A DNA stretch of 64,000 nucleotides from a bacterium (lineage in GTDB: Bacteria > Patescibacteriota > Minisyncoccia > UBA6257 > MFKM01): positions 134,618 through 198,617 of the forward strand of contig JAUYAV010000019.1 of assembly GCA_030693325.1 (NCBI GenBank), in the 5' to 3' direction. Of this stretch, positions 3,035-62,299 are shown one piece after another. The notes beneath the pieces were generated by a model. That model was not told where the DNA came from, ran no database searches, and was given only the letters and a program-made list of their open reading frames with translations. Each line of letters starts with the position of its first letter. Within the stretch, counting starts at the first letter, position 1. The position numbers were made by a program, and so were the translations under genes.

Positions 3035-3036
3035 TC

Positions 3037-4210: not shown

Positions 4211-4212
4211 GA

Positions 4213-4394: not shown

Positions 4395-4423
4395 TAAGAA
4401 AGAGTTTTTTCCTAAAGGAAGTT

Positions 4424-4461: not shown

Positions 4462-4475
4462 GGTGAATTTTATAG

Positions 4476-4503
4476 TTGACTTTGATTTTTTTGAAATTAT
4501 AAT
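4476..4503 (+). promoter_or_regulatory. Sigma70-like promoter for grpE-dnaK (TTGACT-N16-TATAAT)
   Basis: Near-consensus -35 and -10 hexamers 18 nt upstream of the grpE start. Confidence 0.55.
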
Positions 4504-4520
4504 TTATAGTTCATTTTGAT

Positions 4521-5078: not shown

Positions 5079-5086
5079 AATAAAAT

Positions 5087-6889: not shown

Positions 6890-6892
6890 ATA

Positions 6893-7879
6893 ATGGCTGA
6901 TTTAATTTCTAAAGAAAGCGGCGGTTTTAATCAATCGTCTGTTAAAATTATCCCTCTTTTATTTTTGGAGATTGTTTCGGCTTTTTTGATGAGTTTTTAC
7001 TTTCGGCAGCTGATGACCGGTTTTAGCGTCCTGAATTTAATTTGGTTTTCAGCTGGGCTCGCTTTGTTTGTTATTATTTCTTTCCTAGCCGCTTTGTTTG
7101 TGAATGAATTACTATGGTCAAGTTTGGCGGCCGGTTTGTCGGTGATAGTCAGCCTGGCGGTTTTTTACGATTATTTTTCAGTGGTTTTGTTGGGATTCGG
7201 GTTTTTGATTTTTTTGATTTTGGTTTGGGGCATATCCAGATTAAAGACAGATTCAGATAATACCTTAAAGATTAATTTTTCTCACTTATCAAAAATATTT
7301 CTGTCTAAAATAACTTTAGCAACGGCGATTTTGCTTTGTCTTTTTGCTTATTTTTTGTTTTCTGCCAAGGGCGGTTTCCCGATTTCTTTTGAAAGTTTCC
7401 GGGTTTTCATACTGAAACCCAATGAAGGAATAATTAGTATTTTCGTTCCTAATTTTAAATTTCAGGAACCATTACAAAAGGTTTTGGCCGGCGTTCTGGA
7501 AAATCAATTATCCCAAAGTATCCCAAATTTTAAAAATTTACCGGCTTCAGTCAAAGAAACGGTTATCGCCTCGGCCGTTGATCAGGAATTCGGCGTTAGT
7601 TTGACCAAAGCTCTCGGTTATCAGGTCAATCTTAAGGACTCGGTTGACAAGGTTGTTTATGATTCTTTGGTGATAAAATTTGACCAGCTTGACCCAACGG
7701 CTAAAAATTGGATATATATCGGAGTTTTTGTTGCTTTGTTTTTTACCATCAGGTTTTTATTCATCCCGATAAATTGGGTGCTTTCTATTTTAATGTTTTT
7801 AATCTATCAATTACTGTTGGCGGTCAAGTTTGTCAGCATTAAATCGGAATCAAGAAGCAAGGAAGTTTTCAGTATATAA
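6893..7879 (+). CDS. Hypothetical polytopic membrane protein inserted between dnaK and dnaJ
   Basis: 328 aa, multiple hydrophobic helices, no recognisable motif. Confidence 0.5.
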   Translation: MADLISKESGGFNQSSVKIIPLLFLEIVSAFLMSFYFRQLMTGFSVLNLIWFSAGLALFVIISFLAALFVNELLWSSLAAGLSVIVSLAVFYDYFSVVLLGFGFLIFLILVWGISRLKTDSDNTLKINFSHLSKIFLSKITLATAILLCLFAYFLFSAKGGFPISFESFRVFILKPNEGIISIFVPNFKFQEPLQKVLAGVLENQLSQSIPNFKNLPASVKETVIASAVDQEFGVSLTKALGYQVNLKDSVDKVVYDSLVIKFDQLDPTAKNWIYIGVFVALFFTIRFLFIPINWVLSILMFLIYQLLLAVKFVSIKSESRSKEVFSI

Positions 7880-7900
7880 AAAATTTTCTCTAAATTTGGC

Positions 7901-9034
7901 ATGAGCAAGGATTACTATAAAATTTTAGGAGTGGAACGCAGCTCCTCGGCCGAGGAAATCAAAAAAGCTTTTTATAAGCTGGCTCATTTGTATCATCCTC
8001 ATAAAGCCGGCAAGGACGAAAAAAAATTCAAAGAATTAAACGAAAAATTCAAGGAAATCAACGAGGCCTATCAGGTGCTTTCCGACAAAAGCAAACGGGA
8101 ACAATATGACCGTTTTGGAAAAGTTTTTGAAGGAGCGTCGGCGGGCGGCGGGGAATGGCCTTCCGGGTTTGAACAGGGGTTTGGTTCATCAGGTGGCGGC
8201 CCTGGTTTTGATTTTGAAGGAGATTTGGGCGACCTCGGCGATTTGGGGGAATTTTTTGAGACTTTTTTCGGAGGAATGAGCGGGCGCCAGCCCAGACGCA
8301 CTTATCGCCGCGGGTCGGATATGGAAATAGTTCAGGAAATAAGTTTGGAAGAATCTTTTTCCGGGGTTCGGCGGCATTTGGAATATAAAACTTTTATCAC
8401 TTGCGATAAATGTAAAGGTTTGGGCTACGATAAAAAAGAAGGGAAAAGCGTTTGCTCAACTTGCGCCGGTCGCGGGGAAATCAAGGAAAACCGCCAGACC
8501 TTTTTCGGAAATTTTTCCCAGAATCGGGTTTGCTCCCAGTGCCATGGTATGGGCGAAGTGCCCAATAAAATTTGCCTGGAATGCAAAGGTTCCGGCCAGA
8601 AGTCCAGCATCAGGGAAGTGGATATTGATATTATCCCGGGCGTGGCTGACGGCCAGATTATAAAAATAAAAGGCATGGGCGAGGCGGGCGAGCGGGGCAG
8701 TGAAACCGGGGATTTATATGTCCGGATTAAAGAAAAACCCCATCCGCTTTTCCGCCGGGAAGGAGATGATTTGTATATGTCCCAGGATTTGAAATTCACC
8801 GAGGCCTTGCTGGGCAAAAAAATAAAAATAAATGATTTAAGCGGCGAATACCTGAATATTGAATTACCGGCCGGGTTTAATTTCAAAGAAAAATTGAAAG
8901 TTGGCGGCAAAGGGATGCCGCACTTGCATGGCATGGGCCGGGGTAATCTTTATATGGAATTTGACCTTAAACTGCCGAAACATCTTTCCGAAAAAGCCAA
9001 AAAAATAATTGAGGATTTAGACAAGGAGATATAA
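7901..9034 (+). CDS. dnaJ: Chaperone DnaJ. The J-domain, G/F region and four CxxCxGxG zinc-finger repeats are present, but the J-domain carries HPH instead of the HPD tripeptide.
   Basis: DYYKILGV…LYHPHK; [24 protein letters not shown] and CLECKGSG repeats. Confidence 0.9.
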
Positions 9035-9165
9035 AGGGTTTTCTGCAGCCCAGTACATAACGCTTTATGTATGGGCTAGTTAGCAAACTTTTACCCCGCC
9101 GATGGCGGGGTGCTCAAATTTATGATAAAATTTATTTCACTAAGGGGTCATAAATTTTAATAAAT

Positions 9166-10218
9166 TTGGCAATGGAAATCATTTTTTTAATCGTTATTTT
9201 ATTGGTTTTATTGGGCGGCTTGGCGCTGATTTTTTGGTTTTTGAAAAATCGTTTAGCAGTGCCGAAAAATGACGAGCAATCTTTGCTGATGATTCAAAAC
9301 CAGATTGGTGAAATTACCAAAACTCTTGATAATAAACTTGGTGAGTCAACTAAAAGTATGCAAAGCCAGTTTGACAGCAGTAGCCGGTTAATCAAAGAAA
9401 TCACCCAGGAACTTACTAAAGTCGGTGAAGGGCAAAAGCAGGTGGTGGATGTCGCAAGGCAGTTGGAGGACCTTCAGGATATTTTAAAGAATCCGAAACA
9501 ACGGGGAAATTTGGGCGAATACTCCCTGGAACTGTTATTGCAGAATTTTTTTCCTCATAATTACGAATCCCAGTATGAATTTAAAGACGGCACGAAAGTT
9601 GATTTTATAATCCGCATTAAGGATAAAATTATCCCGATTGATTCTAAATTCAGTTTGGAAAATTATCAGAGAATTTCAGAAGCTAATGACGAAAACCAAA
9701 AGCAGAAACTGGAAGAAGCTTTTAAAAGCGATATCAAAAAACGCATTGATGAAACGGCTAAATATATCAAGCCGGAAGAAAATACGATGGATTTCGCTTT
9801 TATGTTTATTCCAAGCGAAGCGATTTATTATGACCTTTTAGTTAATAAAATCGGCGCTTTGAAAGTTAATACCCGCGATTTGATAGAGTATGCCACGAGA
9901 GAAAAGAAAGTGATTATCGTTTCGCCAACGTCATTTATAGCTTATCTTCAAACCGTTCTTCAGGGCCTGAAAGCCATGCATATAGAAGAAGAAACGAAGA
10001 CAATTATTAAAAACGTAGAAGAATTAAGACGGCATTTGATCGGTTATGCCGATTTTTCTAAAAAAATAGGAGTGCATCTGGGCACGACCGTTAATATGTA
10101 TAATCAATCACAAAAGGAATTCAAGAAAATAGATAAAGACGTTTTGAGAATTACGGGCAAGGTAGTGGGAGTAGAGCCCTTGAATTTAGAAAGTCCGGAA
10201 AATGAAGACGGAGAATAA
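9166..10218 (+). CDS. rmuC: DNA recombination protein RmuC-like
   Basis: N-terminal TM segment, long coiled coil and an RmuC-type C-terminal domain. Confidence 0.6.
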   Translation: MAMEIIFLIVILLVLLGGLALIFWFLKNRLAVPKNDEQSLLMIQNQIGEITKTLDNKLGESTKSMQSQFDSSSRLIKEITQELTKVGEGQKQVVDVARQLEDLQDILKNPKQRGNLGEYSLELLLQNFFPHNYESQYEFKDGTKVDFIIRIKDKIIPIDSKFSLENYQRISEANDENQKQKLEEAFKSDIKKRIDETAKYIKPEENTMDFAFMFIPSEAIYYDLLVNKIGALKVNTRDLIEYATREKKVIIVSPTSFIAYLQTVLQGLKAMHIEEETKTIIKNVEELRRHLIGYADFSKKIGVHLGTTVNMYNQSQKEFKKIDKDVLRITGKVVGVEPLNLESPENEDGE

Positions 10219-34334: not shown

Positions 34335-36506
34335 TTAAGATTTTATTTTGTGCGGATTGTGATTGGGGCAGATTTTATTACTGCATCGTTCCGGGATTGT
34401 TTTCGTGCCTTCCATCATAAGCGAACCGCAATCTTTGCAGATATTTCCCGTGGGTTTGGTTTTCATAATATATTTGCAGTTCGGATATTCCGAACAGCCG
34501 TAAAATATCCCAAACCGGCCTCGCTTCTCAACCAGAACTCCTTTTTTACAGATAGGGCAGGTTACATTGGTTCTTTTCGCCGCCTCGGCGGCTTCGTCTT
34601 TTTTAATATAACGGCATTTCGGATATCTGTTGCAGGATATGAATTTGCCGAATTTTCCCTCGCGTTCAATGAGTTTGCCTTCTTTACATTTCGGACAGGC
34701 CTCTCCGGTTTCTTTGGGCGGTTCCATCGCTTTGCCGTCAATTGTGCGGGCGCCGGCGCAATCGGGGAATCGCGAACAACTCAAGAATTTTCCCTTGCGG
34801 CCAAGCTTAATGACCATATTGCCGCCGCATTCCGGGCAGACAATGCTTTTATCCGCTTCGCCCAGGGTGGTTATTTTTTCGGCGCTACTTTTTTCTTTAA
34901 CCTGTTCCGAAAAGGGTTTATAAAAATCGCCCAGTGTTTTTGCGTATTCTCTTTTCCCTGCCGCGATTTCGTCAAGCTCATCTTCCATTTTAGCCGTGAA
35001 AGAGTCGGCAATGATGTTGCCGAAATTTTTTTCCAGAAAGTCGCTGACAACTTCGCCGGTGTCGGTAGGGTGAAGTGTTTTTTGAATTTTTTCCACGTAG
35101 CCGCGGTCCTGGATTGTTTTGATGATTGTCGCGTAAGTGCTTGGTCTGCCGATGCCGCGTTTTTCCAGTTCCTTGACCAATCCGGCCTCGGTATATCTTG
35201 ACAACGGCATGGTTTCTTTTTTCTCTGATTCAATTTTTTCCAGAGCCAGAGCATCACCTTCGTTGGTTTTGGGGAGTTCTATTTCTTTGCCGCTTGCTTC
35301 CGGGTCAACCGCGAGCCAGCCGTCAAAGAGCGTCCGCGAACCGGTCACGGTAAAGTCGGGGATATCTTTGCTTTTTATATTGGCGGAAATTTTTGTTTTC
35401 AGTATTTTTGAGTCGCTCATTTGGGAAGCCACGGCCCGTTTCCAGATTAATTTATAAAGTTTTTCTTCTTCCTCGGTATTACCGGCTGATTCCACGGAAA
35501 AATTGCTTGGCCGGACGGCTTCGTGCGCTTCCTGGGCATTTTTGCTTTGGGTTTTATAAACCCTGTTTTCCAGATAATTTTTCCCCAGTTTTTTTAATAT
35601 GGTTTTTGATATTTCTTCAATCGCTTTTGTCGCCATATTCAAACTGTCGGTTCGCATATAAGTGATATGTCCCGCTTCGTAAAGTCTTTGAGCAAAATAC
35701 ATTGTTCGTGACGGCGAGAAGCCCAGCCGGGAGCTCGCGGTTTGCTGTAAAGTGGATGTGATAAACGGCGGCAAAGGCGAGCGTTTGGTTTCTTTTTCTT
35801 CAACGCCGATTACAGACCAGCCTTCTTTTTTTCCTTTTTCAAGAATTTCATTTACATCTTTTTCACTGCGCGGTTCCTTAGAACACACCAGCGAGAGCGT
35901 TTCTTTTTTATCGTTTTTAAAGTCAGCCGTTATAGTCCAATAATTTTCCGGCTTAAACGCGCGGATTTCCCGCTCGCGCTCCATAATAATGCGGAGGGCG
36001 GGGGATTGGACGCGGCCGGCCGAAAGCCCGTATCTGACTTTTTTCCAGATAAGGCCGCTTAAATCGTAGCCGACCAGCCGGTCTAAGACCCGGCGGGCTT
36101 CCTGCGCTTTTCTTAAATTTTCATCAATTTTCCGCGGATGTTGCAGCGCTTCTTCCACTGCTTCTTGCGTGATTTCATGAAAAGATATTCTTTTTATTTT
36201 TTTTCCTTTAAGGCCTAAGGCCTCGGCGATGTGCCAGGCGATGGCTTCGCCTTCGCGGTCAGGGTCGGTTGCGAGGATAACTTCGTCTGATTTGTCGGCA
36301 AGTTTTTTAAGTTCGGAAACAATTCCTTCTTTCCCTTTAATGATTTCATAGCGGGGTTTAAATTCGTGCTCAATATCAATCGCTTTTTTGTTGTTTTTCG
36401 GCAAATCGCGGATGTGCCCGACCGAAGATTTCACGGTGTAATTTTTGCCGAGATATTTTGAGATGGTTTTTGTTTTGGTCGGGGACTCAACGATGACTAA
36501 ATTCAT
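34335..36506 (-). CDS. topA: DNA topoisomerase I with C-terminal zinc ribbons
   Basis: TOPRIM N-terminus, catalytic Tyr region, several CxxC…CxxC ribbons. Confidence 0.95.
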   Translation of the reverse strand: MNLVIVESPTKTKTISKYLGKNYTVKSSVGHIRDLPKNNKKAIDIEHEFKPRYEIIKGKEGIVSELKKLADKSDEVILATDPDREGEAIAWHIAEALGLKGKKIKRISFHEITQEAVEEALQHPRKIDENLRKAQEARRVLDRLVGYDLSGLIWKKVRYGLSAGRVQSPALRIIMEREREIRAFKPENYWTITADFKNDKKETLSLVCSKEPRSEKDVNEILEKGKKEGWSVIGVEEKETKRSPLPPFITSTLQQTASSRLGFSPSRTMYFAQRLYEAGHITYMRTDSLNMATKAIEEISKTILKKLGKNYLENRVYKTQSKNAQEAHEAVRPSNFSVESAGNTEEEEKLYKLIWKRAVASQMSDSKILKTKISANIKSKDIPDFTVTGSRTLFDGWLAVDPEASGKEIELPKTNEGDALALEKIESEKKETMPLSRYTEAGLVKELEKRGIGRPSTYATIIKTIQDRGYVEKIQKTLHPTDTGEVVSDFLEKNFGNIIADSFTAKMEDELDEIAAGKREYAKTLGDFYKPFSEQVKEKSSAEKITTLGEADKSIVCPECGGNMVIKLGRKGKFLSCSRFPDCAGARTIDGKAMEPPKETGEACPKCKEGKLIEREGKFGKFISCNRYPKCRYIKKDEAAEAAKRTNVTCPICKKGVLVEKRGRFGIFYGCSEYPNCKYIMKTKPTGNICKDCGSLMMEGTKTIPERCSNKICPNHNPHKIKS

Positions 36507-38147: not shown

Positions 38148-38219
38148 GGGTGTGTAGTTCAGTGGTAGAACGCTGTCCTGATAAGACAGAGGTCGGAGGT
38201 TCGATCCCTCCCACACCCA
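38148..38219 (+). tRNA. tRNA-Ile (anticodon GAT)
   Basis: Manual fold: acceptor GGGUGUG/CACACCC; anticodon loop CUGAUAA; T-loop GGTTCGATCC; no encoded CCA. Confidence 0.75.
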
Positions 38220-38261
38220 CTGGAAGAGTTCATTAATAATTCAGTTAAAAAGGAGGAAAGG

Positions 38262-38867
38262 ATGAAACGGATTAGAGCTTATTTTTACGCGGGAATAATT
38301 TTAGTTTTGCCTTTGGGGTTATTGCTGTTTATTTTATCCTGTTTGGTAAAGATTTTTAAAAATATTTCTTCGGCAATCGGTTTAAAGACGGTCATTTTCA
38401 GCTTGGTAGCAAAATTGCCGTTGCCTTCGTTTTTATTGGCAACCGGAGAATGGTTAGAATGGTTGTTGATTGCCGTTAGTATCGCGGCAATTCTGATATT
38501 TTTGGGATGGTTCAGTTCAAAAATAGGGAAAAGAATAATTGAGTTTTTAGAAAGGGCGATTAAAAAAATTCCGCTGATTGGCTCTCTCTATTTTACTTTT
38601 AGAGAAACGGCGAAACTCACTCTTAAAGAAAAAAAGGCCTTTAGGGAGGTAGTCAAGGTGCAAGTTATTGAGGGAATCCAGAGTATCGGGTTTGTGGTCC
38701 AGAGAAAGGATACAAAGGTAGTTGTTTTTATTCCTTTTGTTCCAAATCCCTTAACTGGCATCACGATTATTGTTGATAGTAGTCTGGTTATTCCTACAGG
38801 TTTAAGCGTTGAAGAAGGAATGAGATGGATGATCAGTTTTGGCGCCTCTCCTGATTTATTATCCTGA
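38262..38867 (+). CDS. Membrane protein (DUF502-like)
   Basis: Two N-terminal TM helices plus a soluble domain; strong SD AAGGAGGA. Confidence 0.4.
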   Translation: MKRIRAYFYAGIILVLPLGLLLFILSCLVKIFKNISSAIGLKTVIFSLVAKLPLPSFLLATGEWLEWLLIAVSIAAILIFLGWFSSKIGKRIIEFLERAIKKIPLIGSLYFTFRETAKLTLKEKKAFREVVKVQVIEGIQSIGFVVQRKDTKVVVFIPFVPNPLTGITIIVDSSLVIPTGLSVEEGMRWMISFGASPDLLS

Positions 38868-38932
38868 TATATCAAGCGAATCCCGCCAGTTCATGATGGA
38901 CTGGTGGGATTTTTTATTTTAAAATTATATCT

Positions 38933-39415
38933 ATGATTCTTTTCGCCCACGTTGTTTTCGCCGATGCCGTCAGTTCCGCGGGAAATTTTCCTTGGCCGAT
39001 GGCTTTTTTGTTCGGTTTAATATCCCATCATTTGTTGGATTTCATTCCTCATCTTGACGCCGGTTGTGTCTGGCCGGAAAAAGACAGAGATGCCGGCACA
39101 ATGCCCAAAGCAGTTGTAATTTTTATTGCCGCTGACGCTTTATTGACATTGGGGTTTTTAATTTGGTGCGCTTTTTTTCTGAAAATAAATTGGGCTATTT
39201 TGTTCTGGGCGAGTTTTGGCGCGGCTTTGCCGGATTTAATCGTCACCGGCTTTCCTTTTTTCATTCCTAAAATTAAATCTTGGCCATGGGTGAAAAAATA
39301 TGAAAAATTCCACTATAGCCTTTTTGACCACTTAGGCATTTCCACTAATTGGATTTTTGGCATTTTTAGCACTATATTGATAATCGGAGTTTCTTTTTGG
39401 TTGTTGCTGAAATAA
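38933..39415 (+). CDS. Hypothetical polytopic membrane protein
   Basis: Four or five hydrophobic helices. Confidence 0.4.
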   Translation: MILFAHVVFADAVSSAGNFPWPMAFLFGLISHHLLDFIPHLDAGCVWPEKDRDAGTMPKAVVIFIAADALLTLGFLIWCAFFLKINWAILFWASFGAALPDLIVTGFPFFIPKIKSWPWVKKYEKFHYSLFDHLGISTNWIFGIFSTILIIGVSFWLLLK

Positions 39416-39419
39416 ACAG

Positions 39420-39491
39420 GGGCCCGTAGTTCAGTGGTAGAACGCCTCATTTGCAATGAGGAGATCAGCGGTTCGATCCCGCTCGGGTCCA
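39420..39491 (+). tRNA. tRNA-Ala (anticodon TGC) with the G3:U70 identity pair
   Basis: Manual fold: GGGCCCG…CGGGUCC acceptor with G3·U70; anticodon loop UUUGCAA. Confidence 0.8.
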
Positions 39492-39602
39492 CAGGAACAA
39501 AGATTATTTCTTCCCAATTTTATGCTGTGGATAACTTGCTTTGGACTTTCTATTTACTTTCTAGTATACTGAAGCTGATAGTGAAAAGTTAATCCACACA
39601 TT

Positions 39603-43088: not shown

Positions 43089-44216
43089 ATGGAGCCGTTA
43101 GCATCAAAAATAAGACCGAAAATTTTGGAAGAATTTGTCGGTCAGGAGCATTTAGTCGGAGAAGGAAAGCCTTTTAATATAGCTATAAAACAAAAGCATT
43201 TGTTTTCTTTTATTTTATGGGGGCCTCCTGGAACCGGAAAAACTACTTTGGCCAAGATATATGCCAATAGTCTGAACGCAAAAATTTATGAATTGTCCGC
43301 GGTTTCGGCCGGAAAAGCGGATATCAGAAAAATACTAGAAGAAGACTCGGACGGAGTTCCTAAAGTTTTATTTTTAGACGAAATACATCGCTTTAATAAA
43401 TCCCAGCAGGACTTTCTGCTTCCTTATGTTGAAAGAGGGGAGATAATTTTGATTGGCGCCACTACCGAAAATCCGAGTTTTGAAGTGATATCGGCTTTGC
43501 TTTCCCGATGCCGAGTTTTCGTTTTAAATGAACTTTCAGAAAATAACATAAAGGCCATTATTAAAAGAACCGGAATGAAAATGGATGAAGCGGCGGAAGA
43601 TTGGCTGGTAAATGCGGCCAATGGCGATGCCAGACAAGTAATAACTTTGTTGGAAAACACCAGCGAACTTTATAAAAAGATTACGGTGGAAAATTTAAAA
43701 AACGTTCTCCAATCAAAGTTTTTGAGATACGACAAAGTCGGGGAAGAACATTACAACACTATTTCCGCCTTTATCAAAAGCATGAGAGCGAGCCAGCCTG
43801 ATGCGGCTTTGTATTATTTGGCTCGGATGATTGATTCCGGCGAAGACCCAAAATTTATAGCCAGAAGAATGGTTATTTTTGCTTCCGAGGATATTGGTTT
43901 GGCTCAGCCCACAGCCTTAGTAGTGGCTAATGATGTTTTTCGGGCCGTGGAAATAATCGGTCTGCCCGAATGCGGTATTAATTTGGCTCACGGAGTAGCT
44001 CATCTGTGCCAGTGTAAAAAAGACAGAAGAGCCCATGATGCTTATATGGAAGCGATGGAAGACGTAAAAAATTTCGGCAATCTTCCTATCCCTTTAAGTT
44101 TGCGGAATCCTGAGACAAAATTAATGAAAGATTTAAATTACGGCAAAGGATACGAAAAATATTCCAAGGAATCTTTTCTGCCCGAAAAATTAAAAGGAAA
44201 AAAATATTTAAAATAA
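43089..44216 (+). CDS. rarA: Replication-associated recombination protein RarA/MgsA (AAA+)
   Basis: WGPPGTGKTTLA; FLDEIHRFNKSQQD; MgsA C-terminal helical domain. Confidence 0.9.
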   Translation: MEPLASKIRPKILEEFVGQEHLVGEGKPFNIAIKQKHLFSFILWGPPGTGKTTLAKIYANSLNAKIYELSAVSAGKADIRKILEEDSDGVPKVLFLDEIHRFNKSQQDFLLPYVERGEIILIGATTENPSFEVISALLSRCRVFVLNELSENNIKAIIKRTGMKMDEAAEDWLVNAANGDARQVITLLENTSELYKKITVENLKNVLQSKFLRYDKVGEEHYNTISAFIKSMRASQPDAALYYLARMIDSGEDPKFIARRMVIFASEDIGLAQPTALVVANDVFRAVEIIGLPECGINLAHGVAHLCQCKKDRRAHDAYMEAMEDVKNFGNLPIPLSLRNPETKLMKDLNYGKGYEKYSKESFLPEKLKGKKYLK

Positions 44217-47200
44217 TGCCCCTGAATCTGGAAAAACTTAATAAAGAGCAAAAAGAAGCCGTGGTTCATGGCCAGGGGCCGCTTTTGATTGTGGCCGGAG
44301 CCGGAACCGGCAAAACGACGGTTATCACCCAGAGAATAGTTAATTTAATTGAAAAGGAGAAAGTTAAACCTGAAGAAATATTGGCCGTCACTTTTACCGA
44401 AAAGGCGGCCGCGGAAATGGAAGAAAGGGTTGATATTCTTTTGCCTTATGGCTATGTGGATTTGTGGATTTCCACTTTCCATTCTTTCTGCGAAAGGGTC
44501 TTGCGCGATTACGCTTTGGATATCGGCTTGCCGGCGGATTTTAAGATTTTAGACAACACGGCCGGCTGGCTTTTGGTTTATCGCAATCTGGAAAAATTCA
44601 ATCTCGATTATTACAAACCCCTGGGGAATCCGACCAAATTTATCCAGGCCCTGATTTCTCATTTTTCCCATTGCAAAGACCAGGCGATTTATCCCGAAGA
44701 TTATTTAAAATACGCCGAAAAGCTGAAAACCCGGGATGACGCGCCGGAAGAAAATGAAACCGAGAGGATAAAAGAAGTGGCGAACGCTTACCATGTTTAT
44801 CAGCGTTTGCTTTTGGAGAACAGTTCTCTGGATTTTGGCGATTTGATAAATTATTGTTTGAAATTGTTTCAGAAAAGGCCGCTGATTTTGAAAAAATATC
44901 GGGAAAAATTCAAATACATTTTAGTTGACGAATTTCAGGACACCAACTGGGCGCAATACGAGCTTATAAAAATCTTAGCGGCGCCGAAAAATAATCTGAC
45001 CGTCTGTGCCGACGATGACCAATGTTTGCCGGGCAATTCAAAAATAGAGATTTTTGAGAACGATAAAATCAAAATAAAGGAAATTAAAAAAATTGAAATA
45101 GGCGATAAAGCATTAACAGCCGTAGGAAAAGGTCATATAGGGGTTGCTAATGTGAATAATGTTTTCGTCAAAAACAAGAGGGCAAAGATATTAACCGTTA
45201 AAACAGAAGGCGGCTATTCAGTAAGCGTGACAGATAATCATAAAATGTTTTGCTGTGTTCCAAGAACTGCTCGGCAGAATTATCATTATGTTTATTTGAT
45301 GTTTAGAAAAAATTTGGGGTGGAGGATAGGGGTAACTGATGATTTAATTTTGCGGCTTAGGATAGAGCGTTCGGCAGATAAAATTTTGGCAATAAGGGCC
45401 TTTAACACTGATTCTGAAGCGAGATATCACGAAACATTGTGGTCGTTGAAGTACGGCATACCCACTTGTTGTTTTAAAAGCAGGGAAGGCATCGTTATCA
45501 AAGAAAATGAGTTGGCTAAATTATATAAGGAAATTAATACCGAAGATAATATACGGAAATTAGCTCAAGATTTAAATATTGACTTAGATTCGCCCCATTA
45601 TTGTCTAGATGCCGTTAACAGGGGAAGAAGCGTCAGGATAATCATCAATTTGCAAATGTGCTACAGAAATTACCGAAGCAAGGAACACGTCAGAAGCGAG
45701 AAAACTCTGCTTTTGAATGGCTTGACAAGGCACAGGCTTTATTTGGAAACGTCAGACAAGCAAACAATTAAGAAGCTAAAAACAGCAGGATATATTCTTT
45801 ATAAAGCGAGGAAAGGAATGAAATTAAACATAGAAGGAGGCGATGTAAAAGATCTTGAAGGAAAAGCAAGAGCGATAGAAAAAATTACAGGCGGATTCAT
45901 AGAATATAAATTTAATGTTGCGAGCAAATACAGCAAGCCGTCAGGCACGGCACGAAATTATATGTCTTTGATTATGCCCGCAAAAAATTTAGTTTTAGGA
46001 CACTATCTTCCGGTAAAAAAAGGCGCTGAGATAATTTACGATAAAATAATTTCAATTAAAGAAGTTGATAAAAAAATAAAAGTATATGATTTGGAAATCG
46101 ACAAAACCCATAATTTTATAGCCAACGGAATAGTGGTCCACAATTCTGTTTATAGGTGGAGAGGGGCATCTTATAGCAACATAGTCCAATTCAATAAAGA
46201 TTTCCCGAAAGCCGAGCAAATTTCTTTGGTTAAAAATTACCGGTCCGGCCAGAATATTTTGGATTTGGCTTATAAATTCATAAAAGCCAATAATCCCGAC
46301 CGCCTTGAATACGTAAATAAAATAAACAAGGAATTAATCGCCCAGGAAAAAGGTGAAGGCAAAATAGAGCATATTTTGGCGAAGAACCTGGAAGAAGAAG
46401 TTGATAAAACAATAAAGAAGATCTTAGGGATTCTTAAAAAAGACAAAGACGCCGGTTATAACGATTTTGCGATTTTAGTCAGAGCCAATGACGCGGCCAA
46501 TCCTTTTATTAAGGCCCTGGAGCGCGCGGGCTTGCCTTATCAATTTTTGGCTTCAAGAGGGCTTTATTCAAAGCCGGTTATTTTGGACGTAATCTCATAT
46601 TTCAAACTTTTGGATAATTACCACGAGAGCCCGGCGGTTTACCGGATCTTGAATATGCCATTTTTGGAAATCCCGCCCGCGGATATTATGAAGCTTACTC
46701 AATACAGCCACAAAAAAACAAAGTCGCTTTATGAGGCGATGGAAGAGCTTCCTCTAATTCCGGGAATTTCTCCGGAAGTTCAGGAAAAAATCCTTTTCGT
46801 TTTGAGCTTGATTAAAAAACACGCCATTTTTGCCAAAGAAAAATCGGTCTCGGAAATAATGATTGCATTTCTTAAAGAGTCGGGATATATAAAATATTTA
46901 ACGAAAAAAGACGACAAAGAACAGTTTGATTTACTCAATCAATTCCATAAAAAAGTGAAGAATTTTGAGAGTGCGGCAATAGAGCCGACTTTAGGCAATT
47001 TTATGCGGGAAATAAATCTTGAGATAGAATCCGGCGAAGAAGGAAAGCTTGAATTTGACCCCGAGCAAGGCCCGGACATGATAAAAATAATGACTATCCA
47101 CGGAGCTAAGGGCTTGGAATTCAAATATGTTTTTTTGGTTAATATGGTGGATAAAAGATTTCCGACAATGGAAAGAAAGGATTTAATTGAGCTACCCGAA

Positions 47201-48298
47201 GATTTAATCAAAGACATAAAGCCAACTGGGGATGTTCATTTGCAGGAAGAAAGGCGCATTTGCTATGTGGCCATTACCAGAGCCAAGAAAGATATTTATT
47301 TCACTTCGGCTGAAGATTATGGCGGGGTGAGAAAAAAGAAATTGTCTCGCTTTCTGATTGAAATGGGATACCAGGAAAAAACTGAAAAACCGAAAAACTT
47401 AAAAACTCAAAACGAAATGCTCGCGGAGAAACCGATTTCGGTCGGGACAAAAAACAAGCCGATGCCGGATTATCTGCCGAAACATTTTTCGTATTCGCAA
47501 TTGGCGGCTTTTGACAAGTGTCCGTTGCAGTATAAATTCGCTTTTATTCTGAAGGTTCCGACCAGAGGCAAGGCCGTGTTTTCTTTCGGGAAGACGATGC
47601 ATAATACTTTTTATGAATTTTTAAAATACGCCAACGAAGGCAGCGCGAGCAATCAAACAAATTTGTTCGGGTTTGAAGAAAAAACAATTAAGGCCGGTAA
47701 AAAAGCCCTGTCTGCCGGCAGGCATGAAAAATCTTTAGATTTAGACGATTTAACGGAAATTTATGAGAAAAACTGGATTGACGAATGGTATGAGAGTAAA
47801 AAACAAAAAGAGGATTATCGCAAGCTCGGCAGGAAAATAATTAAAGATTTTTATGATGAATTTGTAAAAAATCCGCCGAAAGTTTTAAAAATCAATAATG
47901 CCTTTGCTTTGGAAATGCCGTTTAACCTGAAAATAGGGGGATATGCCTTATACGGCGTGGTGGACAGAATTGATGAAGAGGATGGTGGCGTGACCATCAT
48001 TGATTACAAAACAGGAAATTCTAAAGACAAGCTGTATCCGGGCGATAAAGAACAATTGTTGATTTATCAGATAGCGGCTGAAGAGATATTCAAACTAAAG
48101 CCCCAAAAATTGGCTTATCATTATTTAACCGACGGCAAGAAAGCGTCTTTTCTCGGAACGGAAAAAGAGAAAGAACAGCTGAAAGAAAAAATAATCCAAG
48201 AGATTGAAGAAATAAAAGGCAGTGATTTCAAGGCGAAGCCGAGTCAGCTTTGCGCTTTCTGCGATTTCAAGGATATTTGCGATTCCGCTCAGAGATAG
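44216..48298 (+). CDS. UvrD/PcrA-family helicase fused to a C-terminal RecB/Cas4-like PD-(D/E)xK nuclease (AddA-like). It is interrupted by an intein in helicase motif III.
   Basis: AGAGTGKTT; DEFQDTN; …CADDDQ|C…HN|SVYRWRGAS; C-terminal IIDYKTG and CAFCDFKDICD. Confidence 0.9.
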   Translation: MPLNLEKLNKEQKEAVVHGQGPLLIVAGAGTGKTTVITQRIVNLIEKEKVKPEEILAVTFTEKAAAEMEERVDILLPYGYVDLWISTFHSFCERVLRDYALDIGLPADFKILDNTAGWLLVYRNLEKFNLDYYKPLGNPTKFIQALISHFSHCKDQAIYPEDYLKYAEKLKTRDDAPEENETERIKEVANAYHVYQRLLLENSSLDFGDLINYCLKLFQKRPLILKKYREKFKYILVDEFQDTNWAQYELIKILAAPKNNLTVCADDDQCLPGNSKIEIFENDKIKIKEIKKIEIGDKALTAVGKGHIGVANVNNVFVKNKRAKILTVKTEGGYSVSVTDNHKMFCCVPRTARQNYHYVYLMFRKNLGWRIGVTDDLILRLRIERSADKILAIRAFNTDSEARYHETLWSLKYGIPTCCFKSREGIVIKENELAKLYKEINTEDNIRKLAQDLNIDLDSPHYCLDAVNRGRSVRIIINLQMCYRNYRSKEHVRSEKTLLLNGLTRHRLYLETSDKQTIKKLKTAGYILYKARKGMKLNIEGGDVKDLEGKARAIEKITGGFIEYKFNVASKYSKPSGTARNYMSLIMPAKNLVLGHYLPVKKGAEIIYDKIISIKEVDKKIKVYDLEIDKTHNFIANGIVVHNSVYRWRGASYSNIVQFNKDFPKAEQISLVKNYRSGQNILDLAYKFIKANNPDRLEYVNKINKELIAQEKGEGKIEHILAKNLEEEVDKTIKKILGILKKDKDAGYNDFAILVRANDAANPFIKALERAGLPYQFLASRGLYSKPVILDVISYFKLLDNYHESPAVYRILNMPFLEIPPADIMKLTQYSHKKTKSLYEAMEELPLIPGISPEVQEKILFVLSLIKKHAIFAKEKSVSEIMIAFLKESGYIKYLTKKDDKEQFDLLNQFHKKVKNFESAAIEPTLGNFMREINLEIESGEEGKLEFDPEQGPDMIKIMTIHGAKGLEFKYVFLVNMVDKRFPTMERKDLIELPEDLIKDIKPTGDVHLQEERRICYVAITRAKKDIYFTSAEDYGGVRKKKLSRFLIEMGYQEKTEKPKNLKTQNEMLAEKPISVGTKNKPMPDYLPKHFSYSQLAAFDKCPLQYKFAFILKVPTRGKAVFSFGKTMHNTFYEFLKYANEGSASNQTNLFGFEEKTIKAGKKALSAGRHEKSLDLDDLTEIYEKNWIDEWYESKKQKEDYRKLGRKIIKDFYDEFVKNPPKVLKINNAFALEMPFNLKIGGYALYGVVDRIDEEDGGVTIIDYKTGNSKDKLYPGDKEQLLIYQIAAEEIFKLKPQKLAYHYLTDGKKASFLGTEKEKEQLKEKIIQEIEEIKGSDFKAKPSQLCAFCDFKDICDSAQR
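45023..46144 (+). mobile_element. Intein (~374 aa) with a putative, degenerate homing-endonuclease core
   Basis: Cys1 (CLPGNSKI); block B TDNHKM; C-terminal VVHN followed by Ser+1; the extein motif III DDDQ/SVYRWRGA is restored on excision. Confidence 0.8.
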
Positions 48299-49701: not shown

Positions 49702-49783
49702 GCCCAGGTGGCGGAACTGGTATACGCGTGCGTTCGAGGGGCGCATGCCGCAAGGATTGAGGGTTCAAATCCCTCCCTGGGCA
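49702..49783 (+). tRNA. Type II (long variable arm) tRNA with a Leu-like body (A73, GCGG…CGCG D-arm). The anticodon reading is ambiguous: GAG (Leu) or CGA.
   Basis: Manual fold: acceptor GCCCAGG/CCUGGGC; T-arm GAGGGTTCAAATCCCTC; anticodon region GUGCGUUCGAGGGGCGCA. Confidence 0.7.
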
Positions 49784-49855
49784 CATTATCCTTGCTTAAT
49801 AATCGGTTTTTTGTTAATATTAAAATACCCAAGCGGGTATTTTAATTTTGTCTAT

Positions 49856-51841
49856 ATGGCTAAAAAACAGGGAAAAATTAAGGAAAAATCAATAAAAAAA
49901 GGAACCGCTGAAGCTACTCCGGCTAAAGAGAAGGAGGTTTCTTACGAAGCCAAGGATATCTATGTTTTGGAAGGGCTGGAACCGGTCAGAAAACGTCCGG
50001 CGATGTATATCGGCTCAACCGGCGTTGACGGGCTTCATCATTTAATTTGGGAAGTAGTGGACAACTGCATTGACGAGGCGATGGGCGGTTACGCCAAAAA
50101 TATCAAAGTGGAATTGTTTAAAGATAACCGGGTGGCGGTGGCTGATGACGGCCGCGGCATTCCGGTAGATATTCATCCTCACACTAAAAAATCGGCCTTG
50201 GAAACCGTGTTGTGCACTTTGCATGCAGGTGGAAAATTCGGGGGCGAATCATACAAAGTGGCAGGCGGGCTTCATGGTGTCGGCGTTTCGGTGGTCAACG
50301 CTTTATCAAGATGGCTGCGGGTTGAGGTTTGTCGAAACGGCAATCTTTATTCGCAGGAATACAAAGAAGGCAAGCCGCAATACAAAGTCAGAAAAGAAGG
50401 GAAATGCGGGCAGACGGGGACTAAAGTAATTTTTGAACCTGATACGAAGATTTTTCAAGCGGTTGAATTTGATTTGAAAAAAATAATCGGCCATCTCCGA
50501 CAGCAGGCCTATTTGACGCCGAAGTTAAGAATAGAAATTATTGACAATCGTTCGGAACAGACCGAGGCCTATGGTTTTTATTTTGAAGGAGGACTTAAAT
50601 CTTTTGTTAAATATTTAATCGGGAACAAAGAACCGATTCAAAATCAAATTTTTCATCAAAGCCGGAGTTACGAAAAAATTTTGGTGGAATCGGCTTTTAC
50701 TTACACCAACGACATTGAAGTTCAGGAAATAAGTTTCGCTAATAATATTTATACCCCCGATGGCGGGATGCATTCAACCGGTTTTCGGTCGGCTTTGACC
50801 AGAACTATTAATGATTTCGGCCGCCGCGAGGGCTATCTTAAAGAATCCGAGGAAAATTTAATCGGCGAGGATGTCCGCGAAGGTTTGGTGGCGGCGGTGT
50901 CGGTAAAATTAGGGGAACCTCAATTTGAGGGGCAAACCAAAGCCCGGTTGGGCAATCCGGAAGCCCGAACTGCGGTGGAAACCGTAGTCAATGAAGCACT
51001 TAAGGAATTTTTTGAGCGTTATCCATCTGACGGCCGAAGGATTGTTGAAAAATGTCTTTTGACGGCTAAAGCGCGGCAGGCGGCCAAAGCGGCCAAAGAA
51101 ACGGTTTTGAGAAAAGGGGCTTTAGAAGGAATGACTTTACCGGGAAAATTAGCTGATTGCAGTTCTCGCAGTCCCGAAGAATCAGAGCTGTTCATCGTTG
51201 AGGGCGATTCGGCCGGCGGAAGCGCCAAGCAGGGCCGCGATAGGCGGACTCAGGCCATCTTGCCTTTGCGGGGCAAAATTCTTAATGTGGAAAAATCAAG
51301 AATGGACAAGATGCTGATGAACCAGGAAATAAGGAACTTGGTTATCGCCATCGGCACGGCTATTGGTGAAGCCTTTGATCTTTCAAAACTTCGCTATCAT
51401 AAGGTGATTATTATGACTGATGCCGATACTGACGGCGCTCACATCCGGACCTTGTTGTTGACTCTTTTTTACCGCTATCTTGTGCCTATAATTGAAAACG
51501 GGCATCTTTTTATCGCCCAGCCGCCGCTTTTCCGTCTTCAGAAAGGCAAGGAAGTCCATTATGCTTACAAAGAAGCGGAACGGGACCGTATTCTTAAATT
51601 ATTTTCTGACGATGGGAAAACCGGCGTGACTATCCAACGCTATAAAGGTTTGGGAGAAATGAATCCCGAACAACTCTGGGAAACAACGATGAATTCCGAT
51701 TCCCGCCAGTTGAAACAGGTGATGATAGAAGATGCGGTTGAAGCCGACCGGCTTTTTGATATTCTCATGGGGGAGGAAGTGGAGCCCCGGAAGAATTTCA
51801 TCCAGGCGCATGCCACCGCCGTTAAAAATTTGGATATTTGA
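49856..51841 (+). CDS. gyrB: DNA gyrase subunit B (or topoisomerase IV subunit B). The true start is MAKKQG; the track's N-terminal extension overlaps the tRNA.
   Basis: GHKL ATPase, TOPRIM (EGDSAGG) and [11 protein letters not shown] motifs. Confidence 0.85.
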
Positions 51842-58840: not shown

Positions 58841-58973
58841 CACCCCGTTAGAAGTCTGGTTCATGTTTAATAATGATTATTATTTTAATTAAAAATTCAT
58901 ATTTGATTAACCTATCTGTTATGACAGAAAAATTTCTATAGAAATTTTTCTGTTCAAGACTTCTAATGGGGTT
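58841..58973. repeat. Family-A palindromic element, copy 3, filling the gap between the dnaE stop and the thrS start
   Basis: CCCCGTTAGAAGTC…GACTTCTAATGGGG with the internal acagaaaaattt…aaatttttctgt hairpin. Confidence 0.85.
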
Positions 58974-61900
58974 CATAATTCTCTTGCTTCGTTGCAGATA
59001 ACTTTAGTTTCTCCGTTTCTTAGGGAAAGCTGGCCGTTTATCATCAAGATATTATTTTCTTTCCAAAGATTGGGATTTTTGGAAAAAGTTTCGGAGAAAA
59101 CAATGACTTCCAAATTATCGCTTAAATCTTCAATTTTGACAAACAGCATCGGTTGGCCCCTCTTGGTTATAATTCTCTGGATACTGGAAACCACACCGGC
59201 CACTTTAAGCCGGGCCCGGTCTTTGAGCCCGCCATTCATTGTCTCTTTTATCGGCTGGACGCGATTTTCTTTGAGTTGATTGGTATATCTTTTAAGGGGA
59301 TGGTCGGAAATATAAAGTCCCAAAAGTTCTTTTTCCCAGGATAATTTCGTTTTGGCATCGGCGGCTTCAACCTGATTCAGTTTAAGTGAAGTTAATTTTG
59401 GCTGGTAATTGAAAAGGCTGTTCTGGTTGCTTAATTTATTTTTTTTACTCAAAGAATTAAATTTCAATAATTCTTCGCTGTTTGATAGGGCGGCCTGTCT
59501 TTCAATGCCCATTGAATCAAGGCAGCCGCTTTTTATCAAACTTTCCAGGGATTTTTTATTAAGGTCGCGGTGGTTAACCCGGTTGAGAAAATCCGGCAAA
59601 CTTTCAAACGGTCCGCCCCGGCCGCGTTCTTCAATCATTATAGAAACGATATTGGCGCCGATGTTTTTAACGGCTAAAAGTCCGAAACGGATATTGTTGG
59701 AATTTTCCGGAGCGAAATCGGTATAACTTTTATTGATGTCAGGCGGTAGGACGATAATATTTGCTTTTCGGGCCTCATTAACCAGAAAGGCGATGCGTTC
59801 AATGTCATCGGTGTTGGCGTTTAATAAGCTGCTAAAAAATTCCACCGGATAATGAGCTTTGAGATAAGCGGTTTGATAACCGATAAGGGCGTAGCAGGTG
59901 GCATGGCTTTTATTAAATCCGTATTGGGCAAATGGTTCAAACCATTGCCAGATTTTTCGGGCGGTTTTTTCTTCAATGCCGTTTTTGATCATGCCTTCAA
60001 TCATTTTTTCGGCCTGGGCCTGAAGCAGGGATTTTATTTTTTTACCTACCGCCTTTCTCAAAATATCGGCTTCGGTCAGAGAAAAACCAGCGAGGTCGCG
60101 GGCGATGGTCATTAGTTGTTCCTGATAAATGGCAACACCATAAGTTTTGGCCAAAATTGGCTCCAACCGCGGATGAAGATAAGTGATTTCTTCCTGGCCG
60201 TGTTTCCGGCGGATATATTGGGGGATCAATTCCATCGGCCCCGGCCGGTATAAAGAAACCATGGCGATAATATCCTCAATTTCACTCGGTTTTAATTGTT
60301 TTAAGTAGCCGCGCATACCAGAACCTTCCAGCTGAAAAATTCCGGTGGTTTCGGCGGCGCGCAGAAGTTCAAAAGTTTTTTTATCATCAAGAGGAATTTT
60401 ATTGATGTCAATTTCTTTTTGATAAATGTCTTTTATTAATTTCAAAGTGTTTTCAATAATGGTCAGGTTGCGGAGGCCCAGAAAGTCCATTTTCAGAAGT
60501 CCTAAATCTTCAATGCTGTGCATTTCAAACTGGGTAATGATGATATCTTTGTTTTGCGGCGCATATTGAAGCGGCAAATAATTAGTAAGAGCTTCTTTTG
60601 AAATCACCAGGCCGCAGGCATGGACCGAGGCGTGACGGGCAACACCTTCCATTTTTTTCGCTGAGTCAATTAATTTTTTGGCGTTGGCATCGTGCTCATA
60701 AAGGTCGCGCAGTTCGGTTACTTCTTCAAGCGCTTTCTCTAAGTTAAATTGAAAAGGAATCATTTTGGCGGTTTGGTCGCAAAAGCCGTAGGCGAAACCT
60801 AAAGCCCGGCCGGAATCGCGAATCGCCGCCCGAGCCGCCATTGTTCCGAAAGTGATAATTTGCGCCACCCGGTCGGTGCCGTATTTTTCCCGGACATAAG
60901 CCACCACTTCATCGCGCCGGACATCGGTAAAATCAATGTCAATATCGGGCATCTGAATACGGTCGGCGTTCAAAAATCTTTCAAAAAGCAGGTCGTATTT
61001 TAAGGGATTAATATTGGTTATGTCTAAAACATAAGAAACCAGACTGCCGGCGGCCGAGCCCCGGCCGGGCCCGACAACGATGCCCCGCTGTTTTGCCCAG
61101 GCAATAATATCCCGAACAATCAGGAAATAATCGGCAAAGCCGGTTTTTTCAATCACAGAAAGCTCGTAATCAAGCCGTTTTTTTATTTCCTCGGTGATTT
61201 CGGAAAAACGACTGGCTAATTTTTCATTAACAAGATTGCGGAGATAAGAATTAGAGGTTTGGCCTTCGGGAACGGGGAAGTCCGGCATGAGAATTTTTCC
61301 CAATTCAATTTCCAAATTACAGCGGTCTGCAATTTTAATAGTGTTAGTAATCGCTTCCGGAGTTTCTTTGAAAAATTCGGCCATTTGTTCCGGAGAGCGC
61401 ATAGAGAAATCGTCAGTGAAAGTGAGCCGGCCGGGATCATCTACCGTATTGCCTGTTTGGATTGCCAGAAGAATTTCATGATAAGGCGCGTCTTCTGATT
61501 TAAGATAATGAATGTCCTGAGTGGCTACTAAAGGCGCTCCGGTTTCTTTTGAGAGTTCAATGATAGCTTGATTAATTTTTTCGGAATCTTTTATTCCGGG
61601 GTGATGGCCGATTTCCAAAAAGAAATTTTCCGGGCCGAAAATGTTTTGATATTCAAGAATTTTTTCTTTGGCCACCGAAATTTTTTCCGCCGCAATCAGC
61701 CGCGAAATTTCTCCGGACAGGCAAGCTGAGGTCGCAATAATTCCCTCATGGTGTTGCGCTAAAAGTTCCTTATCAATTCTTGGCTTATAATAAAATCCTT
61801 CCAAATTTGATTTGGTCACTAATTGGAGAAGATTTAGCCAGCCAGTTTTATTCTGGGCCAGAAGAATTAAATGATAGGGCCGGTCGTCAATTCGGGAACG

Positions 61901-62131
61901 CTTATCAAATCGGCTTTGGGACGCTAAATACGCTTCCACGCCGATAATCGGTTTGATTCCGGCTTTTTTTGCCTTTTGGTAGAACTCAATCGCCCCATAA
62001 AGATTTCCATGGTCGGTTATCGCCAGAGCCTCCATGCCTAATTCTTTGGCGCGGTTAATTAAATCGTCAATTTTCGCCAAGCCGTCAAGCAAGGAATAAT
62101 GGGAATGAGTATGGAGATGGACGAATTTCAT
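58973..62131 (-). CDS. dnaE: DNA polymerase III alpha subunit (the start is probably MKFVHLHTHSHYS)
   Basis: PHP domain HTHSHYSLLDG, polymerase core and OB fold. Confidence 0.93.
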   Translation of the reverse strand: MKFVHLHTHSHYSLLDGLAKIDDLINRAKELGMEALAITDHGNLYGAIEFYQKAKKAGIKPIIGVEAYLASQSRFDKRSRIDDRPYHLILLAQNKTGWLNLLQLVTKSNLEGFYYKPRIDKELLAQHHEGIIATSACLSGEISRLIAAEKISVAKEKILEYQNIFGPENFFLEIGHHPGIKDSEKINQAIIELSKETGAPLVATQDIHYLKSEDAPYHEILLAIQTGNTVDDPGRLTFTDDFSMRSPEQMAEFFKETPEAITNTIKIADRCNLEIELGKILMPDFPVPEGQTSNSYLRNLVNEKLASRFSEITEEIKKRLDYELSVIEKTGFADYFLIVRDIIAWAKQRGIVVGPGRGSAAGSLVSYVLDITNINPLKYDLLFERFLNADRIQMPDIDIDFTDVRRDEVVAYVREKYGTDRVAQIITFGTMAARAAIRDSGRALGFAYGFCDQTAKMIPFQFNLEKALEEVTELRDLYEHDANAKKLIDSAKKMEGVARHASVHACGLVISKEALTNYLPLQYAPQNKDIIITQFEMHSIEDLGLLKMDFLGLRNLTIIENTLKLIKDIYQKEIDINKIPLDDKKTFELLRAAETTGIFQLEGSGMRGYLKQLKPSEIEDIIAMVSLYRPGPMELIPQYIRRKHGQEEITYLHPRLEPILAKTYGVAIYQEQLMTIARDLAGFSLTEADILRKAVGKKIKSLLQAQAEKMIEGMIKNGIEEKTARKIWQWFEPFAQYGFNKSHATCYALIGYQTAYLKAHYPVEFFSSLLNANTDDIERIAFLVNEARKANIIVLPPDINKSYTDFAPENSNNIRFGLLAVKNIGANIVSIMIEERGRGGPFESLPDFLNRVNHRDLNKKSLESLIKSGCLDSMGIERQAALSNSEELLKFNSLSKKNKLSNQNSLFNYQPKLTSLKLNQVEAADAKTKLSWEKELLGLYISDHPLKRYTNQLKENRVQPIKETMNGGLKDRARLKVAGVVSSIQRIITKRGQPMLFVKIEDLSDNLEVIVFSETFSKNPNLWKENNILMINGQLSLRNGETKVICNEAREL

Positions 62132-62299
62132 TTTGATATTAACATCATAATTCTTTTGCCAAAAAAACAAAACCCCCACGCCATGTGAGGGTAAAAGATC
62201 ACTTCGAAATTTCGGAGTGGTTTGACAGGCATGTTTTATTATTATTAAATAATGTGAAGTCAAACAGCAAATTAACAAATTAATATAAGGAGGTGGAAG

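Follow-up and report, generated by a model that had tools for sequence, protein, structure and literature searches.

Helicases of the UvrD/PcrA type are recognised intein hosts (PMC4760082; PMC5874633; PMC8785237), and an intein in such a gene is therefore, as such, of a known kind. Homing endonucleases of the GIY-YIG type have been described as residents of group I introns or as genes that stand alone (PMC1564403; PMC2677866), and members of this superfamily were stated not to have been found in inteins (Dunin-Horkawicz et al. 2006, PMC1564403; also PMC2677866). The non-canonical intein endonucleases reported in a 2025 preprint include in-frame HNH, antisense LAGLIDADG, antisense VSR-like and out-of-frame EndoVII-like types, with no in-frame GIY-YIG type among them (10.1101/2025.01.02.630785). 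In the limited literature searched no description of a GIY-YIG intein was found, which is absence of evidence and not a proof of novelty. Here we describe an intein of 374 amino acids (aa) in a helicase-nuclease gene of a Patescibacteria contig (JAUYAV010000019.1), the whole stretch of 64,000 nucleotides that was analysed being designated below as the window. It is a class-1 intein inserted between Q and S of helicase motif III, and it probably carries in the same frame a divergent nuclease of GIY-YIG fold together with a DNA-recognition module, for which the function of homing endonuclease is the most likely one.

The intein and its host gene

The host gene is an intact open reading frame (ORF) with no interruption, which encodes 1360 aa with the intein and 986 aa once spliced. 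Three Pfam models match the product above their cut-offs, namely UvrD-helicase PF00580 (aa 8-270, 257 bits, E 2.7e-76), UvrD_C PF13361 (aa 669-1033, 174 bits, E 8.5e-51) and PDDEXK_1 PF12705 (119 bits versus a cut-off of 22, E 4.4e-34), and the NCBIfam model TIGR00372 (cas4) gives 51.5 bits, which is under its cut-off of 65. Direct reading of the nuclease domain reveals IIDYKTG and QLLIYQ as well as a four-Cys pattern Cys...CxxCx5C (FDKC ... CAFCDFKDIC), whose residues are the putative ligands of an iron-sulphur cluster. Both helicase domains are present, and after splicing motif III corresponds to the pattern GDxxQSIYxFRGA of the UvrD/PcrA/Rep members of helicase superfamily 1 (SF1). The domain models confirm that in the host a helicase of the UvrD/PcrA type is joined to a PD-(D/E)XK nuclease of the RecB/Cas4 type.

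Translation of the insert gives CLPGNSKI...IVVHN, exactly 374 aa, with ...LTVCADDDQ before it and SVYRWRGAS after it (coordinates of all parts are collected in the table below). The spliced host junction reads CADDDQSVYRWRGAS, with the insertion site lying between AATCTGACCGTCTGTGCCGACGATGACCAA and TCTGTTTATAGGTGGAGAGGGGCATCTTAT, so that removal of the insert restores a contiguous motif III. Curated hidden Markov models (HMMs) recognise both ends of the insert well beyond their cut-offs: Pfam Intein_splicing on host aa 280-643 with 68-73 bits versus a gathering score of 35.8 (73.3 bits at E 2.5e-20), TIGR01445 for the intein N-terminal region with 35.2 bits versus 24.5 over intein aa 1-76, and TIGR01443 for the C-terminal region with 40.7 bits versus 15.6. 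Mini-intein sequences from PDB also align at both insert ends, their C-terminal matches spanning aa 319-374. In 41 relatives C1, H73, H373 and N374 are invariant, and T70 and D356 are at least 90% conserved. Among the intein-bearing relatives whose junctions are defined, the +1 residue is Ser, Cys or Thr with a single exception. The guanine-cytosine (GC) content is 35.4% in the intein and 40.0% in the exteins. An out-of-frame or antisense endonuclease gene within the intein was considered and rejected, since only the host frame holds an ORF of at least 80 aa there.

The comparison with intein-free genes points in the same direction. The spliced extein, cut to its first 679 aa, served as the query in a scan in which each species was represented by a single genome. 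This gave 80 orthologous loci (L004-L083) of 54-87% identity, all of them in metagenome-assembled genomes (MAGs) of Patescibacteria/Parcubacteria labelled as Nealsonbacteria, Staskawiczbacteria, Paceibacterota and similar. The intein is absent from all 80, and in 79 of the 79 alignable loci motif III is contiguous as DDDQ[A/S]IY[RK][WF]RGAS, typically NLTVCADDDQAIYRWRGASF. As these proteins are uninterrupted at this site and the full orthologues examined, of 974-1012 aa, agree in length with the 986 aa of the spliced product, the insert is an exact addition of 374 codons to an ordinary conserved gene. Taken together, a block A nucleophile, the block B TxxH, a terminal HN with Ser+1, the HINT-type HMM matches and fold, and the restoration of the host on removal confirm, by sequence criteria, a genuine class-1 intein, well beyond chance resemblance, and the protein would be expected to splice. 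The sequence-only reading had proposed this 374-aa intein with its motif III site, its splicing residues and its helicase-nuclease host, and had named intein HMMs and intein-free orthologues among the checks; on all these points it is borne out.

At the +1 position the 79 intein-free orthologues have Ala in 50 cases, Ser in 28 and Met in one, and Ser is found in both the window gene and its close intein-bearing relative (L001). The Ser at the +1 position is required for splicing. In an Ala+1 allele splicing could not take place without co-conversion of the Ser codon, and Ala+1 may for this reason mark alleles in which invasion would be lethal. The relative L001 (ENA ERZ25039515 contig_55084; 1614-6387, 6387-10173) was the sole close one found with the intein; an exact search for the window's protein in a contig index gave no entry. 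The helicase gene of L001 contains many frameshifts across both intein and exteins, which are probably errors of long-read sequencing and not decay. Additional genes, about 4.7 kb in all, lie between rarA and the helicase at this locus and are absent from the window; among them are those of an Mrr-type restriction endonuclease and of a DUF3800 protein.

The core of the intein

Between the two HINT halves lies a core of two parts, roughly 250 aa in all. When the core of the window's intein was compared directly with Pfam, NCBIfam, PHROGs and PDB sequences, no match was obtained. The AlphaFold2 (AF2) model built from the single sequence had a predicted local distance difference test score (pLDDT) of 32, whereas with the 41-sequence alignment the pLDDT was 92.5 and the predicted TM-score (pTM) 0.90. 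In this model aa 88-144 follow the order beta-beta-alpha-beta-alpha, that is the three-stranded sheet with flanking helices of the GIY-YIG fold, composed of strand 88-95 (YVY91LM), strand 99-105 (GW-R101-I-G103-VT), helix 108-114 with R111 and E115, strand 120-127 and helix 130-144 with E137. The core-identity listing, whose columns are unlabelled, contains Slx1 (6seh_C; 33 and 6.2), At-HIGLE (7wme; 34 and 6.0), PD-T4-3 (9u75; 35 and 5.8), Slx1 (7cq2; 36 and 5.6), the I-TevI catalytic domain (1ln0; 37 and 5.5), the UvrC N-terminal domain (1ycz; 38 and 5.2), UPF0213 (1ywl; 39 and 4.8) and T4 EndoII (2wsh; 40 and 4.8).

Profile comparisons are in line with this fold. When the N-subdomains of 83 family members were scanned singly against 24,736 Pfam models, PF01541 (GIY-YIG) was matched by 19 of them, all weakly (best E 2.6e-4), T5orf172 and MUG113 were matched once each, and no other Pfam family obtained more than two matches. 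The family consensus aligns to positions 1-69 of the 78 of PF01541 with E 0.029, and gave nothing useful against PHROGs. Modest support comes from hhalign against a narrow YhbQ profile (local P 8e-4, probability 24%), in the register of which Y91 corresponds to Tyr, R111 to Arg and E115 to His, and the GIY-YIG protein BH0048 was second in the PDB profile search, also in register. Y91, the Tyr of "GIY" on strand 1, is aligned with the Tyr of "FLY" in YhbQ and of "YVY" in BH0048.

Seven positions are invariant or nearly so in the 83 inteins, which are otherwise 25-50% identical, and the window copy retains every one of them. These are Y91 (83/83), the Tyr of "GIY"; R101 (82/83), at the position of the second Tyr in "YIG"; G103 (83/83), the Gly of "YIG"; R111 (82/83), the Arg on helix 1; E115 (82/83), at the position of the His one turn past this Arg; E137 (83/83), the metal-binding Glu on helix 2; and P147 (83/83), to which no canonical GIY-YIG equivalent was assigned. 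R111 and E137 are in register in both the hhalign and the HMMER alignments. The second Tyr is lacking, its motif being [YWF]-R101-I-G103 with Arg in 82 and Lys in 1 of the 83, and for this reason the family is designated as GIY-YIG-like and not as canonical. According to the predicted model and the alignments, then, aa 86-155 are called GIY-YIG-like, the fold and most catalytic positions being common with that superfamily and the Pfam threshold being unreached; Y91, R101, R111, E115 and E137 are the probable active-site residues of what would be a DNA-cutting nuclease.

The second core part of about 150 aa is predicted at pLDDT mostly of 86-98, except for the loops 221-230 and 301-310. It has no sequence relative in Pfam, PHROGs or PDB and no match to NUMOD, zinc-finger or helix-turn-helix models, and it always co-occurs with the GIY-YIG-like part within HINT halves. 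As GIY-YIG homing endonucleases have the catalytic domain at the N-terminus and the DNA-binding domain at the C-terminus (PMC2677866), this part would by analogy most likely be the module which recognises the target.

Relatives, mobility and alternative explanations

A word-index homologue search with the core returned one fragment (P0001), while the exhaustive HMMER search with the core alone gave 366 representative clusters (defined at 50% identity) at E up to 1e-3, and 92 at E up to 1e-10. In the 151 proteins examined the core was always flanked by HINT halves, 111 of them being complete in the order hintN-coreN-coreC-hintC and the others being truncated gene calls, and no free-standing core was found among them. 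More than 80 of the 151 have the junction GDxxQ↓C ... HN↓[S/C/T]IYxFRGA (arrows mark the splice sites), i.e. motif III of UvrD/PcrA/Rep-like helicases is interrupted at the same place, and PcrA is the name of one cluster member, which comes from a Terrabacteria MAG. Fidelity to this site and a patchy distribution are features of the family. A tblastn search of phage genomes showed that helicases of Justusliebigvirus and related E. coli phages contain the same intein in the same position. In phage PaulScherrer (MZ501100, bas60_0082) the protein is annotated as "intein-containing UvrD / Rep family helicase precursor" with the endonuclease class unstated, and its intein aligns with that of the window from end to end, including the core (26% identity, E 1e-22). 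Whether these clusters are to be understood as one previously undescribed family, with an in-frame "GIY-RIG" nuclease and a new DNA-recognition module, specialised on motif III of SF1 helicases, with a second site about 40 aa upstream in some of them, and mobile among phages, bacteria of the candidate phyla radiation and other bacteria, is in our estimation evenly balanced.

Several further observations were made on these relatives. In BFVD only three viral proteins possess the whole architecture, two of which are helicases or helicase-sized; the third, A0A8S5TZY8 (782 aa), is named "Adenine specific DNA methyltransferase" and matches the whole intein model with TMq 0.58, and because of this name the same intein architecture may also occur in a non-helicase host. 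Five large helicase-like proteins (P0046, P0055, P0089, P0122 and P0130) contain two inteins each with a GIY-YIG-like core, the second site being about 40 aa upstream of motif III and having in P0046 and P0055 the junction ...SHN↓CQH[LM][ML]FGLIS. P0046 and several others bear an additional intein without a GIY-YIG-like core.

In the proposed cycle the HINT domain would excise the 374 aa by an N-S acyl shift at Cys1, trans-esterification to Ser+1, cyclisation of Asn374 and an O-N shift, which would rebuild motif III and release an active 986-aa helicase-nuclease and the free 374-aa intein of 43 kDa. The freed intein would then bind and cut the coding sequence of an intein-less motif III, and recombinational repair would copy the intein in, along with the adjacent Ser+1 codon. 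Mobility has indirect support from the absence of the intein in the closest exteins (up to 87% identity over the best-aligned segment), from sharing with phages and unrelated bacteria, from the difference in GC content, and from inteins that are more similar than their exteins: 41% versus 27% identity for P0018, 40% versus 30% for P0016 and 45% versus 36% for P0003. Homing may still be going on.

A number of points weigh against a homing endonuclease of GIY-YIG fold. The window's own core matches no nuclease model, and the family consensus reaches 15.1 bits versus the PF01541 gathering score of 22.6. Alignment by hhalign with a 10-sequence profile of the I-TevI clade was not significant (probability at most 2%), though the motifs are in line. 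The canonical YIG Tyr is replaced by Arg101 and the usual His one helical turn past the Arg by Glu115, and because of these two substitutions the domain may follow another chemistry or may have DNA binding as its only activity. Finally, no clear dip of extein identity, the sign of a co-conversion tract, is seen at the junction versus five close intein-free orthologues. An intein that splices but whose core is a degenerate relic, or only binds DNA, and which is inherited vertically without homing until it is lost, would be consistent with the missing nuclease match, both substitutions, the lack of a co-conversion signal and the fact that only one close relative (L001) bears the intein. What speaks against such decay is that the seven positions listed above have been kept in 83 otherwise divergent inteins, including that of the window, which indicates selection on a specific site. 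Decaying inteins normally shrink toward mini-inteins, unlike this family, whose length is held steady at about 355-365 aa, and the mismatch of intein and extein identities suggests transfer. This explanation is therefore considered rather unlikely. It is very unlikely, furthermore, that the insert is a permanent non-splicing helicase domain, in which a domesticated HINT and nuclease module would stay in the mature protein: nothing speaks for it directly, apart from the existence of non-splicing HINT relatives (bacterial intein-like domains), also among the structural matches, while the splicing-specific residues C1, TxxH, HN and the +1 nucleophile are intact and conserved, and 79 orthologues function without the insert. 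A retained insert would, moreover, keep Q and S of the invariant motif III apart, which is incompatible with the function of an SF1 helicase.

The intein might also be mainly a conditional switch, by which redox state, DNA damage or single-stranded DNA controls the helicase-nuclease, with the nuclease-like core being secondary. Cys1 is in principle a redox-sensitive nucleophile, and in repair and replication proteins inteins are concentrated at ATPase and functional motifs, possibly with a regulatory role (PMC4760082; PMC5874633). Location in a conserved motif is, however, equally expected of a homing element, for which the DNA target has to be conserved. The closest orthologues lack the intein, and no sequence feature bears on switching. 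This possibility seems highly improbable. As to the class of the endonuclease, LAGLIDADG is by far the commonest one in inteins (712 of 784 actinobacteriophage inteins; bioRxiv 10.1101/2025.01.02.630785) and the core is of endonuclease size, so a LAGLIDADG or HNH enzyme too diverged for recognition by sequence has to be considered; it is already contradicted by the results and can hardly be credited. Neither LAGLIDADG nor HNH is matched in Pfam by the window copy or by any of the 41 relatives, even at E up to 1, the relatives matching HINT-type families only, and for HNH (the beta-beta-alpha-metal fold) NCBIfam and PHROGs gave no match either. The solved LAGLIDADG inteins PI-PkoII, PI-PfuI, PI-SceI and TliVMA align with the model only across about 140 HINT residues, and DOD-type viral inteins reach a TMq of only about 0.27, compared with 0.56-0.72 for three inteins of the same architecture. 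The predicted topology beta-beta-alpha-beta-alpha is also not the alpha-beta-beta-alpha-beta-beta-alpha of LAGLIDADG, and membership in that class was rejected. The sequence-only reading was thus right in calling the core endonuclease-like and wrong in regarding it as LAGLIDADG-like: the segment LGWRIGVTDD, which it took for a trace of that motif, is the second beta-strand of the GIY-YIG-like fold, equivalent to "YIG". An intein with an in-frame GIY-YIG-like nuclease acting in homing remains the reading which we prefer.

The window and the comparison with known systems

Table. Coordinates of the intein, its host gene and other features of the window
Feature	Coordinates	Strand	Remarks
Host gene, precursor of UvrD/PcrA-type SF1 helicase with C-terminal PD-(D/E)XK nuclease	44216..48298	+	intact ORF
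N-extein, aa 1-269	44216..45022	+	motifs I to II of the helicase plus the first half of motif III; last residues ...CADDDQ
Intein, 374 aa, class 1 (Cys1 ... His373-Asn374)	45023..46144	+	inserted in UvrD motif III, after Q and before S
HINT N-terminal half, intein aa 1-83	45023..45271	+	block A Cys1 (codon 45023-45025); block B T70-D-N-H73
Block B T70-D-N-H73	45230-45241	+	part of HINT N-terminal half
GIY-YIG-like nuclease subdomain, intein aa 86-155	45278..45487	+	predicted fold and conserved residues
Second core part, intein aa 159-312	45497..45958	+	two-helix hairpin (161-184), alpha/beta module (198-297)
HINT C-terminal half, intein aa 313-374	45959..46144	+	block F VYD356LEI, block G IVVH373-N374
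Ser+1 codon TCT	46145..46147	+	C-extein nucleophile and conserved motif III Ser (DDDQ-S-IY)
C-extein	46145..48298	+	remaining motif III (SVYRWRGAS), helicase domains 1B/2A/2B, nuclease
PD-(D/E)XK (RecB/AddB/Cas4-like) nuclease domain, protein aa 1090-1356	47483..48283	+	PF12705
TopA	34335-36506	-	no intein
tRNA-Ile(gat) and tRNA-Ala(tgc)	38148-39492		ORFs 38262-38867 and 38933-39415 between them
LexA-methyltransferase fusion, 491 aa	39603-41078	+	LexA DNA-binding (aa 2-62), Peptidase S24 self-cleavage domain (76-191), N6/N4 DNA methylase (251-473)
tRNA-Leu(gag)	49702-49784		overlaps called gyrB ORF
GyrB	49745-51841	+	no intein
DnaE	58973-62278	-	no intein

A second intein was looked for in the window by six-frame translation and family HMMs, TopA, GyrB and DnaE being among the places checked, and was not found, so that the helicase intein is the sole one there; GyrB and DnaE are among the listed intein hosts (PMC4760082; PMC5874633). 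Some other features were observed in passing. The LexA-type repressor fused to a DNA methyltransferase, with all three domains well above Pfam cut-offs, is an unusual architecture. The tRNA-Leu overlaps the first 40 nucleotides of the called gyrB ORF, the true start of GyrB probably being a downstream Met near 49856 (MAKKQGK...). The tRNA-Ile and tRNA-Ala genes lie 1.2 kb apart. Such a pair is usual in the spacers of rRNA operons, and no rRNA was found anywhere in the window.

If the GIY-YIG assignment is true, inteins have recruited this fold as well, and in a widespread family; the intein would then contain a compact single-chain nuclease with its own new module for DNA recognition, directed at a helicase-coding sequence of high conservation, which would be of relevance to the evolution of homing endonucleases and possibly to their engineering. 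Should the reading of a "GIY-RIG" family also hold, this would be the third in-frame endonuclease class in inteins, next to LAGLIDADG and HNH. An active-looking mobile element is documented in the reduced genomes of Patescibacteria, and phage annotators would gain a name for the unexplained middle of "intein-containing UvrD" proteins. If the assignment is false, what is left is an intein of the ordinary kind in a gene already known to host inteins.

The closest described systems are the inteins of SF1 helicases, including that of phage PaulScherrer, with which the window intein has in common the HINT domain, the class-1 residues, the motif III site (GDEFQ↓C...SHN↓CIYQFRG in the phage) and a homologous core. 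It differs from the phage inteins in its host, which is a cellular Patescibacteria helicase-nuclease fusion, and in its +1 residue, which is Ser here and Cys in the phage. Compared with the LAGLIDADG inteins PI-SceI, PI-PfuI and PI-PkoII, the core occupies the same HINT loop between blocks B and F and the presumed cycle of splicing and homing is the same, but the endonuclease fold is unrelated and the HINT part alone superposes. From proteins known to belong to the GIY-YIG superfamily (I-TevI, UvrC, Slx1, YhbQ/UPF0213 and T4 EndoII) the window domain is distinguished by "RIG" in place of "YIG", by Glu for His, by its score below the Pfam threshold and by its position in frame inside an intein. 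Finally, in the fractured genes described by Dassa et al. 2009 (PMC2677866), helicase genes among them, a homing endonuclease of GIY-YIG type is likewise associated with an intein at a single locus; there, however, the intein is split and the GIY-YIG or Vsr-like endonuclease is a separate ORF situated between the two halves, whereas in the window both are parts of a single continuous polypeptide read in one frame.

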